60,915 bases of DNA, taken from contig JAYPYG010000002.1 in assembly GCA_038280095.1 (NCBI GenBank), forward strand, positions 1-60,915, written 5' to 3'. The DNA comes from Fidelibacterota bacterium. GTDB lineage: Bacteria > Fidelibacterota > Marinisomatia > Marinisomatales > Marinisomataceae. The position numbers and the translations under genes were made by a program. The notes below the pieces were generated by a model. The model was not told the origin of the DNA and made no database searches. It worked only from the letters and a program-made list of their open reading frames with translations. The number at the start of each line of letters is the position of its first letter. The stretch's first letter is position 1. Shown one piece after another: positions 36,039-40,412 of this stretch.

Positions 36039-36962
36039 ATGAAATTCATGGAAAACACTAAAATCAATTTTATGAAGTTCAAATCATTTGGATTTGGTCT
36101 TTCGTCCGTCTTAGCATTTGGATCAATTATACTTCTCCTTATGGGCGTGAATCTTGGCATTGACTTTAAAGGTGGAACAGCAATTGGAGTTAGTTTTTCT
36201 GAGGATGTATCCATACAAGAAGTAAGGGGCTCTCTTAAATCAGTATCTTTGAATGATAGCGTAGTAGATTTAAGTGGAGAAGAAATTAAATATTTTGGAA
36301 GTCAAAGCGATGTTATGATTAAAATAAAGTCTCTTGATAATGAACCTGAAAACTTTGGTCAAATAGTTATTAACCATTTGTATGATTCTATGTCAGCTAA
36401 AGCACCAGAAAACAAAAATGATTTCATTCTTTCACTAGGCTCAGTAAGTCCAAAAGTAGGATCTGAGTTAAGTGGAAAAGCATTTTGGTCTGTTGTATCT
36501 GCTTTAGTCTTAATTCTATTCTATATATCTGTAAGGTTTGAGTTTAGATTTGCTTTAGGGGCTATTTTAGCTCTTGTTCATGATGTTATTATTACATTGG
36601 GAATTTTTTCTCTAACTGGTTTTGAAATTACACTAAGTACGGTTGCTGCTTTTTTAACTATTGTTGGATACTCCTTAAATGATACAATTGTTATTTTGGA
36701 TAGAATTAGAGAAAATATGAAATCCTCTGGTACTGTAATGTTTGAATCAACTATTAATAAAAGCATTAATCAATCCCTAAGCAGAACTTTAATTACTTCT
36801 TTAACGACACTTTTTGTTATTATTGTTTTGCTTGTTTATGGGGGTGAAGTAATAAGACCATTCTCTTTTACTATGTTAGTTGGTGTCATTGTAGGTACTT
36901 ATTCTAGTATTTATATTGCTAGTGCATTGCTTGCAACTATCTACCAATCTTCTAACAAATAA
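36039..36962 (+). CDS. secF: Protein translocase subunit SecF
   Basis: GIDFKGG, HDV.IT, GYSLNDTIV..DRIRE, TLSR-like SLSRT, GTYSSIYIA. Confidence 0.97.
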   Translation: MKFMENTKINFMKFKSFGFGLSSVLAFGSIILLLMGVNLGIDFKGGTAIGVSFSEDVSIQEVRGSLKSVSLNDSVVDLSGEEIKYFGSQSDVMIKIKSLDNEPENFGQIVINHLYDSMSAKAPENKNDFILSLGSVSPKVGSELSGKAFWSVVSALVLILFYISVRFEFRFALGAILALVHDVIITLGIFSLTGFEITLSTVAAFLTIVGYSLNDTIVILDRIRENMKSSGTVMFESTINKSINQSLSRTLITSLTTLFVIIVLLVYGGEVIRPFSFTMLVGVIVGTYSSIYIASALLATIYQSSNK

Positions 36963-37843
36963 TGAATAATAAGATTTTATTTCCATTCATTGCATTGTGC
37001 GTGATTTGGGGTTCAACATGGTATTTCATTAAAATTTCTTTAAATGCTGGAGTTCCACCTTTTTATGGAGTGGGACTTAGATTTCTTTTTTCTGGAATTA
37101 TTTTTTACTTATATATTTATTACAAAAAGCTATCTATACCATTTACCCCGCGAGCAATAAAATTATATCTCTCGTTTGGACTATTAAACTTCAGTCTATC
37201 TTATGGAATGACTTATTGGGCTACTCAATATATTTTTTCTAGTATCTCATCGATTCTATGGGGTCTATTTCCACTCTTTACAAGCTTAATGGCTCATTTT
37301 ATGATTAAAGATGATCCTAATGAAAGATTGAATAAAAATAAAATTGCAGCTCTATTTACTGGTCTAACAGGAGTCATCATCATGAGTGCTAATCAAGAAA
37401 TTGATTTAGCCTCTCAATCGTTTTTGGCAATTCTTGTTTTAATTGCGGTAATTATTATAGCGGCATATCCAAGCGTTCTTTATAAAAAATACAATGACGA
37501 AGTTGGTCCATATCAAATGAATGCTGTTTGTCAGGTATTAACAGGCTTTGTAATGCTTTCTATGTCATTTCTAGTAAAAGAAGATACTTCAGTTATATTA
37601 TGGACAAATGAGCTTATACTTTCAACATTATATCTTATAATTTTTGGAGGATTTATTTCCTGGGGGATTTATTTCTGGCTATATCAATATCTCAACGTAA
37701 CACAAGTTACTTATGTTGCTATCTTCCCTCCAATAGTTGCCATACTACTTGGCTGGGTATTTTTAGGAGAAATACTTACAGCAAAAGAAATTATTGGAAC
37801 CTTATTTATTCTTGGAAGTTCTATACTTATATATAGGAAATAG
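36962..37843 (+). CDS. EamA/DMT family transporter
   Basis: IWGSTW..IK, about 10 TMs, duplicated EamA halves. Confidence 0.9.
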   Translation: MNNKILFPFIALCVIWGSTWYFIKISLNAGVPPFYGVGLRFLFSGIIFYLYIYYKKLSIPFTPRAIKLYLSFGLLNFSLSYGMTYWATQYIFSSISSILWGLFPLFTSLMAHFMIKDDPNERLNKNKIAALFTGLTGVIIMSANQEIDLASQSFLAILVLIAVIIIAAYPSVLYKKYNDEVGPYQMNAVCQVLTGFVMLSMSFLVKEDTSVILWTNELILSTLYLIIFGGFISWGIYFWLYQYLNVTQVTYVAIFPPIVAILLGWVFLGEILTAKEIIGTLFILGSSILIYRK

Positions 37844-37868
37844 AAACTATTTTTTTATAAATTAAATT

Positions 37869-38489
37869 ATGATAGAAAAATTTAAATCAAACTTACTTGC
37901 TGGTATTGCAACTATAATACCTCTTGCTTTAACTGTATACGTAATCCAAGTTATTATAACATTCACGATTTGGATAGGAGGTACAGTAGCTGAGCCATTA
38001 GAAAGATTTGTAAATGTCACTTTTCCTGGCTTTGGTATTATTAGCTCTATCGTTGGTTTACTTATAGTATTTTTTGCTCTCATTATCTTTGGAGCTCTAG
38101 CTAGAAATGTAATAGGTAAAAGAGTTGTAGACTGGCTTGAAAGTATTTTCAAAAAAATTCCTTTAATTGACTCAATATATGGTACTACAAAACAAATTAT
38201 TGAAACCTTTTCAGGATCACAAACTGACTCTTTTCAAAAAGTAGTTTATATAGAATACCCAAGAAAAGGGATGTGGACTTTAGGTTTTGTAACCGGTGAA
38301 TCTGTTAATCAAAATAACGAAGAATTTTATCATTTATTTGTTCCTACAACACCAAATCCAACTTCAGGTTATTTTGTAATTATTGCTAAAGAAGATACAA
38401 CTGCAGCAGATGTTGATGTAGAAGAAGGCTTTAGAATGATAGTTTCTAGCGGTATTGTAGGAAGCCACAAAAATAATATCATTAAATAA
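37869..38489 (+). CDS. DUF502-family membrane protein
   Basis: IP...SIY...KQ, F.KVV.IEYPR.G.W..GFVT, FVPTTPNPTSG. Confidence 0.88.
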   Translation: MIEKFKSNLLAGIATIIPLALTVYVIQVIITFTIWIGGTVAEPLERFVNVTFPGFGIISSIVGLLIVFFALIIFGALARNVIGKRVVDWLESIFKKIPLIDSIYGTTKQIIETFSGSQTDSFQKVVYIEYPRKGMWTLGFVTGESVNQNNEEFYHLFVPTTPNPTSGYFVIIAKEDTTAADVDVEEGFRMIVSSGIVGSHKNNIIK

Positions 38490-38517
38490 AAAAGGAGCAT
38501 CGAAATGCTCCTTTTTT
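38489..38517. terminator. Bidirectional intrinsic terminator
   Basis: AAAAAGGAGCAT-CGAA-ATGCTCCTTTTTTT perfect hairpin with A and T tracts, between convergent genes. Confidence 0.9.
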
Positions 38518-38545
38518 TAATTAAACCTAATAAGATAAAAGTTTA

Positions 38546-38773
38546 TTAACCTCTACCTCTAGCCATAGGTGCGCGAGATACATCACCGTCTTTATCGATG
38601 AAGTATAGGTAACCACTTTCACGTGTTACACCTGCGTCAGCAACTTTTTCAGCATTACCGCCACCAGATCCGCCTCTTGACATACCTGAGCGCCATACGT
38701 TACCATCTTTACCTAAGTAGTATAGATAGCCTTTTTCTTTACTAACACCACATGTTTTTACTTTTTCAGCCAT
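38546..38773 (-). CDS. Small basic protein with two internal repeats; candidate DNA-binding protein
   Basis: AAGGAG RBS, consensus promoter, terminator, two ~33-aa repeats. Confidence 0.85.
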   Translation of the reverse strand: MAEKVKTCGVSKEKGYLYYLGKDGNVWRSGMSRGGSGGGNAEKVADAGVTRESGYLYFIDKDGDVSRAPMARGRG

Positions 38774-38815
38774 TATATTCTCCTTAAAAAGTTTAGTGAA
38801 TAAGCTTATTACAAT

Positions 38816-38844
38816 ATTCTACTACTAAACTCGATTTTTTGCAA
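38816..38844 (-). promoter_or_regulatory. Sigma70-type promoter for the 75-aa gene
   Basis: Minus strand TTGCAA-17 nt-TAGAAT (-35 at 38839-38844, -10 at 38816-38821). Confidence 0.7.
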
Positions 38845-38925
38845 GAAATTTCTCGTCGGAGACCCCTCGGAAGAATTTTACAAAAAAGCTTTAAAATTTT
38901 TATTAATTAGTTAAATTTGGCCCAT

Positions 38926-38999
38926 GCCCCGGTAGCTCAGCTGGATAGAGCAACGGATTTCTAATCCGTAGGTCACAGGTTCGAATCCTGTCCGGGGTA
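38926..38999 (+). tRNA. tRNA-Arg(TCT)
   Basis: GCCCCGG/CCGGGGT acceptor, ACGGA-TTTCTAA-TCCGT, ACAGG-TTCGAAT-CCTGT. Confidence 0.97.
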
Positions 39000-39043
39000 C
39001 GACGACAAACTCCCCTTTTTTAACTTTTTAAAACCTCTAAAAA

Positions 39044-39067
39044 ACCTACTATAGTACCTACTATAGT
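39044..39067 (+). repeat. Tandem 12-bp direct repeat ACCTACTATAGT x2
   Basis: Read directly; each unit contains the palindrome ACTATAGT. Confidence 0.85.
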
Positions 39068-39201
39068 AATTCGGTATTTTCCTCTGACTTTTTGTACTAC
39101 GGAGCTTAATCCGTTGCTTAGAATTGATATGTTAATTTGAGAATGAATCAAGTATATTTATAATATATGAAAAGCACAGGTCATTTAAAAAGGAGATTGT
39201 T

Positions 39202-39354
39202 ATGAAGTATAAAGTTGTTGAAGCAGATTCAAGTAAAGAATTAGCAAGAAGGATTGAGATTTGGCATAGTGAGGGTTGGAAATTAGTTGGTGGTGTATCA
39301 TTTGCTGCTTATGGTATGAACTATTATTATTGTCAAGCAATGGTTAAGGAATAA
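39202..39354 (+). CDS. 50-aa protein, DUF1737-like
   Basis: AAGGAG RBS; MKYKVVEADSSKELARRIEIWHSEGWKLVGGVSFAAYGMNYYYCQAMVKE; below the ORF-track size cutoff. Confidence 0.7.
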   Translation: MKYKVVEADSSKELARRIEIWHSEGWKLVGGVSFAAYGMNYYYCQAMVKE

Positions 39355-39394
39355 TAAACAGTAAAATTTAAGTTTTTTCTCAAGCATACAATCA

Positions 39395-39440
39395 ATTTCT
39401 AATCCGTAGGTCATAGGTTCGAATCCTATCCGGGGTACGA
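39395..39440 (+). repeat. Displaced 3' half of tRNA-Arg (attR-like)
   Basis: ATTTCTAATCCGTAGGTCATAGGTTCGAATCCTATCCGGGGTACGA; no D-arm or 5' acceptor strand upstream. Confidence 0.9.
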
Positions 39441-39461: not shown

Positions 39462-40412
39462 TTAGGTATTTATTTCGGGTAACTCAAACGCAACAACTCT
39501 TGCATCATTATCTATTGCATATAGAAACCATTTACCATGCATATATGCTGTAGCAATTCCATCAGTGTAGGAAACATTATCTAAATACATGGTATTAATA
39601 TATTCTAACGATTTACGATCATATAAATGAAAACGATTATCAGTTTTGCTTTGTTCAGTACAAATCCAATATCCATTATTATCTTTATTAATTACTAAAG
39701 CAATCCCTTCAGGATCATTTCCTCTATCAAAATTACCTAAATCTTCTTTTATAACTTCACCAGTAACTAAATCTAAAGCCATAATCTTGTGGTGCTCTTT
39801 CATTTCTTCTGCTACTAACAAAGTTTGATAATATTTATCAGCATGAATACTTTCTACTTGATAAAGCGTTGGGTTTCCTAGTACTGTAGCTCGACTTACT
39901 GAAAATTCATCATTTTCTATGGTAAAATCCCAACTAAGAATGCGGTCTTTTCTTGGATTATTGTATTCATAGCTATCTGTAACTAAAACTTTGTAAGAGT
40001 TGTTTTCCTGCTTGTAGAATGTAATTCCATAAGGGCTGCGCAACTCGTCATTTCCAAAAGTACCTAAAAAGTCTAATGATGAATTAAATACAGCAACCTG
40101 CTTATTATCTCTTTCTGTAACTAAAACAAACTGATCATTAATAGTTGTAATACCATTTGGATAGGCATTTTCCCTCTTAATGGATTTTTTAAACTTTCCA
40201 TTCATTGCACCATATACATGTAGTTCATTTTTATCTTTGACTGTAACCACAATAACGTGCTTTCTCATTAAAAATCCAATACTATCCATACCTGCATCTG
40301 TTATGGACTCTGTTGCAAACATAGGATTTTTTAACGTGATTGTATTCTGTTTAGAATTACATCCGATAATTAATAGGAATGAAAGTGATAGCAAAAATTT
40401 GAAAAACTTCAT
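39462..40412 (-). CDS. Beta-propeller phytase-like lipoprotein
   Basis: Lipobox LIIGC, blade repeats, QVESI..D, DPEGIAL, TDGIA motifs as in alkaline beta-propeller phytases. Confidence 0.65.
   Translation of the reverse strand: MKFFKFLLSLSFLLIIGCNSKQNTITLKNPMFATESITDAGMDSIGFLMRKHVIVVTVKDKNELHVYGAMNGKFKKSIKRENAYPNGITTINDQFVLVTERDNKQVAVFNSSLDFLGTFGNDELRSPYGITFYKQENNSYKVLVTDSYEYNNPRKDRILSWDFTIENDEFSVSRATVLGNPTLYQVESIHADKYYQTLLVAEEMKEHHKIMALDLVTGEVIKEDLGNFDRGNDPEGIALVINKDNNGYWICTEQSKTDNRFHLYDRKSLEYINTMYLDNVSYTDGIATAYMHGKWFLYAIDNDARVVAFELPEINT

Follow-up and report, generated by a model that had tools for sequence, protein, structure and literature searches.

A 0.44-kb single-gene insert behind tRNA-Arg(TCT) of a streamlined SAR406 bacterium has the make-up of a non-autonomous integrative cassette

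We examined a stretch of 60,915 nucleotides (the window) from a streamlined SAR406 (Marinimicrobia) bacterium, in which a 0.44-kb insert with one gene lies behind tRNA-Arg(TCT). The evidence largely supports reading this insert (39000-39394) as a gene cassette that is integrative but non-autonomous and sits in the tRNA gene. As to how such a cassette would move, we consider it probable that it enters at the anticodon loop and is mobilized by the integrases of episomes, acting in trans or, after tandem insertion, in cis. The window is contig C13 of a 1.1-Mb genome in 80 contigs, has about 31% G+C and is bacterial chromosome. In the labels used below, G000 is the window's own genome, other G numbers are genomes and L numbers are contigs.

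A single tRNA-Arg(TCT) was found at 38926-39000 on the plus strand, by ARAGORN and Rfam alike. Its 3′ part belongs to a 46-nt direct repeat (38957-39002 and 39395-39440) whose two copies match at 44 of 46 positions; none of 100 shuffled windows gave any match of the repeat, even with up to 3 mismatches allowed. The first position of the repeat is the final base in the 5′ strand of the anticodon stem, so that identity effectively runs from the anticodon loop TTTCTAA; the repeat extends 2-3 nt beyond the tRNA 3′ end. Only two differences separate the copies, C38975T and G38989A, and together they turn the T-stem ACAGG/CCTGT into ATAGG/CCTAT as a compensated pair. No tRNA 5′ half precedes the second copy (the sequence reads …catacaatcaa and then TTTCTAA), and tRNA prediction does not report it. 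Within the 392 bp that separate the copies, one open reading frame (ORF) is credible, a DUF1737 gene of 50 aa at 39202-39354, and no recombinase ORF is present; over the region Rfam reports the tRNA alone, and the leader of the insert matches no known RNA family. The locus thus has what is looked for in a tRNA-gene-targeting island, an intact tRNA at one end and a displaced direct 3′ fragment at the other. These searches, together with the shuffles, confirm an initial annotation of this DNA, which had described a tRNA-Arg with an att-like duplication of 46 bp from the anticodon loop, two differences forming one compensatory T-stem pair, and about 390 bp between the copies without an integrase. 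It had also raised the prospect that the second copy belongs to a complete second tRNA, which is not the case.

The T-stem alleles allowed us to interrogate the origin of the two halves. Every T-stem is fully paired in 50 intact tRNA copies (45 with ACAGG/CCTGT and five with ATAGG/CCTAT) and in four attP copies, where the alleles are ACAGG/CCTGT, ATAGG/CCTAT and ACAAG/CTTGT. Uncompensated changes are confined to distal (displaced) copies: 77 of 85 are fully paired and the other eight carry single changes of this kind. ATAGG/CCTAT occurs in the intact tRNA-Arg(TCT) of G027, G033, L090 and L122 (ARAGORN), and in L090 the exact allele of the window's second copy, ATAGG with T-loop TTCGAAT, is a working tRNA allele; the attP of a free element, L162, also carries ATAGG/CCTAT. 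Since both alleles are found in intact tRNAs and in attP sites, the two halves are functional alleles of different origin and not products of decay, as had been proposed from the window. Compensated T-stem alleles of this kind are natural barcodes for cassette traffic between lineages.

Contig L082, from a near-identical lineage, made it possible to ask which half came in. Between it and the window the upstream flank (36619-38925) is 98.4% identical and the tRNA 5′ part 100% identical, while the 3′ half differs once, at 38983 in the T-loop. The leader is then 78% identical and the cargo shows no similarity, L082 having a 91-aa gene, a degenerate half and another segment instead. From 39395 on, 119 of 120 positions match, followed by 95.2% identity over 3.8 kb, and L082 keeps the ATAGG half and the flank 'cgaaataaaacag' of the window. 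These identities place the start of the exchanged segment at 38957-38983 and its end at 39394/39395, which are the starts of the two halves; judged from the alignment, this is the pattern expected for an integrase crossover in the anticodon loop. The comparison further points to the distal ATAGG copy as the half resident in the lineage, and to the half completing the tRNA as one that arrived with a cassette. The window's tRNA gene would then probably consist of a resident 5′ part and a 3′ half (ACAGG/CCTGT, T-loop TTCGAAT) from the incoming cassette. The earlier assignment of the halves to a host and to an element attP therefore stands as to two origins, and is refined as to which copy is which.

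Between the two halves, the insert is organized as a leader, a cargo gene and a trailer (Table 1). The leader, of which the window's own genome has a single copy, opens with a sequence that looks like a tRNA trailer or a weak terminator. Its tandem repeat belongs to the class TACTATAGT. In the predicted fold (z = -4.7) the inverted anticodon-arm copy is paired with the arm of the tRNA itself; it may serve as an extra core-type site. The promoter-like site lies just 5′ of the position at which the cargo ORF starts in other cassettes, and in aligned leaders a conserved TATATTT box precedes the cassette ATG. In the window this standard start position is taken by a remnant ORF, which overlaps the start of the DUF1737 gene through a common ATGA. 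The end of the trailer, '…TCTCAAnnATACAATCAA', is common to cassettes of G014, G035, L082, L097, L110 and L128. With every element of the cassette architecture present, the window insert is a member of the family described below and not a random remnant. As a separate observation, a motif AAATTTCTCGTCGGAG about 80-110 nt 5′ of the genuine tRNA (around 38810-38850 in the window, and at the same place in all relatives) resembles the trailer motif AATTTTCTCGTCGAG.

Table 1. Features of the tRNA-Arg(TCT) locus and its insert, in window coordinates.
Feature	Position	Strand	Evidence
tRNA-Arg(TCT), in the role of attL	38926..39000	+	ARAGORN; Rfam tRNA, 74 bits
Repeat copy 1, att core, anticodon loop to tRNA 3′ end	38957..39002	+	
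Conserved leader, P′-arm-like, starts CGACGACAAACTCCCCTTTTTT	39000..39166	+	Leader start CGACGACAAA in 57 of 59 cassettes
Perfect tandem repeat ACCTACTATAGT x 2	39044..39067	+	Candidate arm-type integrase binding sites
Inverted tRNA anticodon-arm copy	39097..39118	-	Minus strand: AGCAACGGA-TTAAGCT-CCGTAG
Promoter-like site TTGAGA-16-TATAAT	39137..39164	+	11 of 12 consensus matches
Remnant ORF, 12 codons, at the standard cassette start position	39167..39205	+	Sequence and leader alignment
Captured cargo: ribosome-binding site and DUF1737 ORF (39202-39354, 50 aa)	39189..39358	+	Pfam PF08410, E = 3e-7
Conserved trailer, core-proximal P arm, …TTTTTTCTCAAGCATACAATCAA	39355..39394	+	
Repeat copy 2, attR, putative displaced resident 3′ half, ATAGG/CCTAT	39395..39440	+	Same half and downstream flank in L082

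A metagenome scan with the junction 'tRNA end + CGACGACAAAYYCCC' yielded 72 marine contigs, which were pooled with the genome loci. In the pooled set, tRNA halves that are in direct orientation throughout delimit 60 intervals, of 374-2257 bp apart from one element of 6.55 kb, and arrays comprise up to four tRNA halves. The 59 small intervals are built alike. The leader is common to 57; the longest ORF lies on the strand of the tRNA in 57, with a median start at nt 155; a perfect or near-perfect tandem repeat of 2 x 11-12 nt stands at nt 42-48 in 46; and an inverted anticodon-arm copy, AATCCGTTG, is found at about nt 96-108 in 52. Their conserved trailers end in …AATTTTCTCNTCGAGAAGTCAACGAT or …ATACAATCAA. 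The tandem repeats fall into about 12 discrete classes, each common to cassettes of differing cargo, and the two units inside a cassette are identical. In about 30 of the 59 cassettes the repeat core matches one of four types that are found next to integrase genes (TACAACAAA, TACAAGAAA, CCTACAACA and AACTACAAAAC). We infer that the tandem repeats are arm-type sites that would allow a cassette to use the integrases of helper elements.

Cargo is diverse, with 42 families among the 59 cassettes and at least 58 distinct cassettes. It includes restriction-modification systems, GmrSD, N6-methylase with Schlafen/AlbA_2, DUF4379 zinc-finger arrays, Ig-domain lipoproteins, HNH, GIY-YIG and LAGLIDADG nucleases, and small membrane proteins. 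The lipoprotein cargos of L038, L042, L112, L122, L123 and L129 differ from one another and have a near-identical signal peptide (MRKILFIIPFFLWTC…) that begins at the conserved cassette ATG; leader and signal peptide seem to form a reusable module. Other cargos resemble homing endonucleases (GIY-YIG with NUMOD, LAGLIDADG with HTH, and HNH, in L074, L078 and the first cassette of L123) and could promote the spread of their cassettes through DNA breaks. Such endonucleases were rejected as the motor of the family as a whole, being found in few cassettes only.

Occupancy of the locus varies across the genus and within populations. Among 36 same-genus genomes (0.7-1.1 Mb), ten besides G000 repeat the tRNA-Arg 3′ half, in two or three direct copies 0.4-6.6 kb apart, with several contigs ending exactly at the repeat; the leader junction, and hence at least one cassette, is present in 11 of 38 genus genomes. 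The genes between the copies are unrelated from genome to genome: a C5-methyltransferase with R.HinP1I (G018), GmrSD_N with HNH (G019), a zinc ribbon protein with DUF805 (G033), several lipoproteins (G014, G022, G032) and unknown proteins (G035, G023). Inserts measure 0.4-2.0 kb in ten genomes, and G011 has an integrase-bearing element of 6.6 kb. The same cassette also turns up in differing contexts (G018 and L125; G019 and L090), a sign of turnover. Empty sites were seen as well. G017 and G031 lack the cassette junction, and their tRNA-Arg is directly followed by the flank and the 93-aa gene that are found past the final half of the G011 and G014 arrays. In G027 the tRNA-Arg directly abuts a GDSL-type hydrolase gene. 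This comparison across the clade had been proposed as a check on the initial annotation; identical content in all relatives, with no empty-site variant, is not what it returned. On the downstream side, most relatives have the 93-aa gene and the GDSL-type hydrolase gene behind tRNA-Arg; both are missing from the window's genome (39395-40412 compared with L045 and L047), whose terminal half directly abuts an NHL-repeat lipoprotein gene at 39462-40412.

Of 64 whole metagenome contigs, 44 have their break no more than 130 nt from a half, which would be expected where a locus varies within populations. The same breaks mark a locus that is hard to assemble, and they lend some colour to the idea that the second half or the DUF1737 segment was mis-joined from a mixed population, as do the 80 contigs of the genome and a 91%-identical, paralogue-like DUF1737 gene in relatives. 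We give next to no credence to such an assembly artefact, for the junctions of tRNA with leader and of terminal half with flank recur in the independent contig L082, and the same architecture is seen in a single-cell genome and in many samples. The DUF1737 module is, besides, 9% diverged from its other copies, and its borders are not repeats of a sort to mislead an assembler. Mis-assembly, named at the outset as a way in which the duplication could prove spurious, is thus counted against.

Elements that use the same site and encode an integrase were found. G011, the single-cell genome 'Candidatus Marinimicrobia bacterium AG-895-O20', carries the 6.55-kb element integrated between halves, which shows that such inserts exist in single cells. 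The element's gene for a 411-aa tyrosine integrase adjoins the distal half; the element also encodes a serine resolvase, ParB_N-DruA and an HTH_17 excisionase-like protein, and CCTACAACA repeats cluster at both of its ends. In the 361-kb contig behind L096/L101, a 53%-identical integrase and its resolvase abut a tRNA half, which is followed by two cassettes; in L096, three copies of AACTACAAAAC adjoin the integrase. A protein database gave 14 integrase clusters at 53-100% identity. The G011-type integrase itself is present in 1 of 38 genus genomes. G000 has no relative of the G011 integrase or resolvase, and its only two tyrosine recombinases match the XerD and XerC models. XerC/XerD were considered as the recombinase of the cassettes and set aside: the site is unlike dif, and dedicated integrases with matching attP exist.

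The contigs of these clusters, L155-L162 (8.6-22 kb), have about 30% G+C like the host and no recognizable host genes. Along them the genes run from HTH_17 through a 70-aa ORF, integrase, resolvase and several unknown ORFs to ParB_N-DruA. A bare tRNA-Arg 3′ half, preceded by …AAAGGA or …AACGGA in place of the tRNA 5′ part, sits between the HTH_17 and integrase genes, and direct repeats with a 12-nt period flank it on both sides, TACAACAAA in L159-L162 and TACAAGAAA in L155-L158; by its layout, this bare half with its flanking repeats is an attP. Wrap-around overlaps of 1,037 nt in L159 and 135 nt in L160 give a unit of about 11,179 bp in both, so that a circular or concatemeric form is indicated for this element at least. 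On these episome contigs most other ORFs belong to no family, and none was recognized as a capsid, terminase or replication gene. The ParB_N-DruA protein of L159 and L160, and also of L155-L158 and L162, is a 591-aa fusion. A metagenome search for attP, which the initial annotation had suggested, was thus productive, the contigs of autonomous elements carrying the bare half with three compensated T-stem alleles. Among viral contigs neither the cassette junction nor the ATAGG half had a match, and the integrase had no relatives. The only viral match to the ACAGG half was the phage-like contig L067 (IMGVR_UViG_3300035204_001150; 38.5% G+C), in which a complete tRNA-Arg, its 3′ half matching the host's, stands next to an unrelated 314-aa integrase-like ORF; this contig is probably unrelated to the cassettes.

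That integrase-bearing elements do use the site raises the question of whether the window insert is a collapsed island, a larger prophage or integrase-bearing element that has lost most of its length by deletion. Some arrays do include degenerate halves and segments with no leader, such as the second interval of L082, which would suit this explanation. The window insert itself has no remnant of an integrase, resolvase or ParB-DruA, and its leader and trailer fit the uniform architecture of the other 57 cassettes, whereas the arms of the autonomous elements are built differently; independent deletions would moreover not yield an ORF start near nt 155 in 57 inserts. We therefore regard a collapsed island as very unlikely and favour, of the two options left open by the initial annotation, the minimal non-autonomous cassette.

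The cargo gene offers a view of how cassettes are loaded. The DUF1737 gene is absent from 60 related genomes, and homologues in metagenomes, 81-88% identical, lie 5′ of a MAPEG gene. The contigs with these MAPEG-linked homologues (L141-L151), which carry no tRNA half or leader, have 78-94% identity with C68 and C26, two contigs of the window's genome. Nucleotide similarity between the cassette and the MAPEG-linked gene, at 89-91%, is limited to 39189-39358, that is, the ribosome-binding site, the ORF and 4 nt. This limit implies that the scaffold took up a chromosomal gene as a precise ORF module. As for the protein, a structure model shows a beta-alpha-beta-beta fold (predicted local distance difference test score, pLDDT, 83) with no match in the PDB at E <= 0.001, and PHROGs gave only weak matches, to families of unknown function.

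Taken together, we propose the following mechanism for the origin of the window's cassette. A tyrosine integrase would have recombined an attP-like site of the cassette, made up of trailer, tRNA 3′ half and leader, with the tRNA gene at the anticodon loop. The cassette's own half would complete the tRNA, and the original half (ATAGG/CCTAT) would be displaced about 440 bp downstream. The DUF1737 cargo, an ORF together with its ribosome-binding site, was taken up from the chromosome of a related lineage. Rare integrative elements of 6.5-12 kb would be the source of the integrase, supplied in trans or, after tandem insertion in the pattern of L096, in cis.

Several observations weigh against this account. 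Neither an excision product, nor a circular cassette, nor an empty site of the exact lineage is seen in the assembled sequences compared, and among the integrases found none has the window's own repeat type, ACCTACTATAGT. What the leaders have in common with the arms of the autonomous elements is limited to motifs, the overall sequences being different: the P′ arm of the helpers reads ctYtctct…ttgatattacttgactta, unlike the cassette leader CGACGACAAA…, and the cassettes have repeats on the P′ side only. The assembly is fragmented and apparently derived from a metagenome, and the internal junctions of the window are seen in this assembly alone. Across pairs of identical cassettes the allele of the flanking half that travels along is inconsistent, which indicates that the arrays are also subject to homologous recombination or gene conversion. 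Only the same-lineage pair G000/L082 is clear on which half travels with the cassette.

One possible hypothesis is that homologous recombination does all of this, the cassettes being no longer site-specifically mobile and being swapped, gained and lost by exchange between halves and leaders with DNA from relatives. The substrate is there, as about 80-200 nt of conserved sequence flank each cassette, and T-stem/T-loop alleles are shuffled among copies by no consistent rule. The same cargo can also carry differing repeat modules in otherwise identical leaders (G018/L125, L089/L121), and the integrase is missing from 37 of 38 genomes. Against it stand repeat units that are identical within each cassette and of discrete types resembling attP arm repeats, a pattern that points to selection for protein binding. 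Breakpoints in G000/L082 that coincide with the starts of the halves, and free elements with the same core, likewise argue for site-specific recombination, and we hold it unlikely that homologous recombination is the sole process. The preferred reading remains integrase-mediated insertion of a non-autonomous cassette at the anticodon loop.

The locus can be compared with several known systems. Additive flexible genomic islands at tRNA genes have been described in Alteromonas (PMC4898812), and a tRNA-Lys island of 'Ca. Methylopumilus' has recurring 20-bp tRNA-end repeats (PMC10872708). The SAR406 locus belongs to this group: it is a tRNA hotspot with repeated tRNA 3′ fragments, the number and kind of cassettes vary among close relatives, and the cargo is rich in unknown, defence and surface genes. 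Unlike those islands, it has a defined, conserved unit (a 42-nt half that starts at the anticodon loop; a leader of about 155 nt bearing tandem repeats and a promoter-like site; in most cases a single ORF; a trailer of about 35 nt), and candidate helpers with matching attP have been identified.

Tycheposons of Prochlorococcus by definition have their own recombinase and often replication genes, and they target seven tRNAs, Arg-TCT among them (bioRxiv 10.1101/2020.12.28.424599). Both occur in streamlined marine bacteria that lack the usual mobile elements, and both integrate at tRNA genes, Arg-TCT being one of them; islands with scattered partial tRNAs, insertions in tandem and cargo or defence genes are further points in common. 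Unlike tycheposons in that published definition, the window's cassette has neither recombinase nor replication genes. Its autonomous relatives do have a tyrosine integrase and a small serine resolvase; no primase, helicase or polymerase was recognized in their scanned ORFs, most of which have no family.

The cis-mobilizable elements (CIMEs) of streptococcal integrative and conjugative elements are deletion derivatives (ICEberg 2.0, PMC6323972). Like CIMEs, the cassettes are flanked by attL and attR of an integrative-element family, lack recombination and transfer genes, and would be expected to move with a helper after tandem accretion; helper and cassettes stand in tandem in L096. The tRNA-Arg half that flanks the window's cassette is also the attP core of L155-L162 and bounds the integrated elements of G011 and L096, and no recombination or transfer gene was found in the cassette. 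The cassettes differ from CIMEs in forming a uniform lineage of their own with many cargos and leaders unlike the helpers' arms, so that an origin by internal deletion does not apply to them. Islander-type islands are defined by a regenerated tRNA and a displaced 3′ fragment with the integrase inside the island (PMC4383910), whereas the window's 392-bp interval has no integrase.

Much like integrons, the cassettes form co-oriented arrays of mostly single-ORF units with one recombination site each, their cargo is diverse, and a tyrosine recombinase is likely the engine. Unlike integrons, they have no resident IntI, attI or attC hairpins, the recombination site is formed by a tRNA 3′ half that carries lambda-like arm repeats, and each cassette has its own promoter-like site, whereas integron cassettes are promoterless. 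Integron-integrase models scored far below their cut-offs on the two tyrosine recombinases of G000. Lambda-type integrases act on an attP with arm and core sites, and some tRNA-targeting integrases cross over in the anticodon loop. The block of identity from anticodon loop to tRNA 3′ end, the restoration of the tRNA by the element, and the direct-repeat clusters on both sides of the core in the autonomous elements all match this design. The cassettes depart from a lambda-type attP in that their repeats are cut to two tandem units on one side and an inverted anticodon-arm copy is added. New here are the miniature-attP cassette scaffold, the discrete repeat classes, the matching SAR406 episomes and the documented capture of an ORF.

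In streamlined bacteria of the ocean, recognizable mobile elements are few, yet flexible gene pools are large, and how single genes enter and leave such genomes is poorly understood. The locus is a concrete candidate for such a mechanism, with a cassette scaffold and candidate helper episomes of matching attP, and its repeat classes would predict which integrase pairs with which cassette. The DUF1737 gene is a caught example of cargo capture, a step that is obscure even for integrons. More broadly, and only tentatively, SAR406 genomes of about 1 Mb might sample genes at a tRNA in an integron-like way, through a large pool of promoter-bearing single-gene cassettes. Each of these would carry a miniature attP with a tRNA 3′ half, two address repeats of about a dozen specificity classes and an inverted anticodon-arm site; the cassettes would be inserted and removed by integrases of transient circular episomes not retained by the host, and loaded by precise capture of an ORF with its ribosome-binding site.

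A second hotspot of the same design lies outside the window in its own genome, at tRNA-Pro(TGG) (contig C17:13943-18531). There the tRNA is followed by a terminator hairpin, the tandem repeat AATGGTGTTAAT x 2, a single ORF for a 1406-aa lipoprotein and, at the end, a perfect 43-nt copy of the tRNA-Pro 3′ half that also starts from the anticodon loop; no integrase is present. On the broader gene-sampling view, this hotspot would suggest that the scheme is general in the lineage. The 3′ 54 nt of tRNA-Arg(ACG) (C46:14580-14654) are likewise repeated, at 100% identity, at C72:1-54, the very start of that contig, and represent either another tRNA-linked island or a contig overlap.

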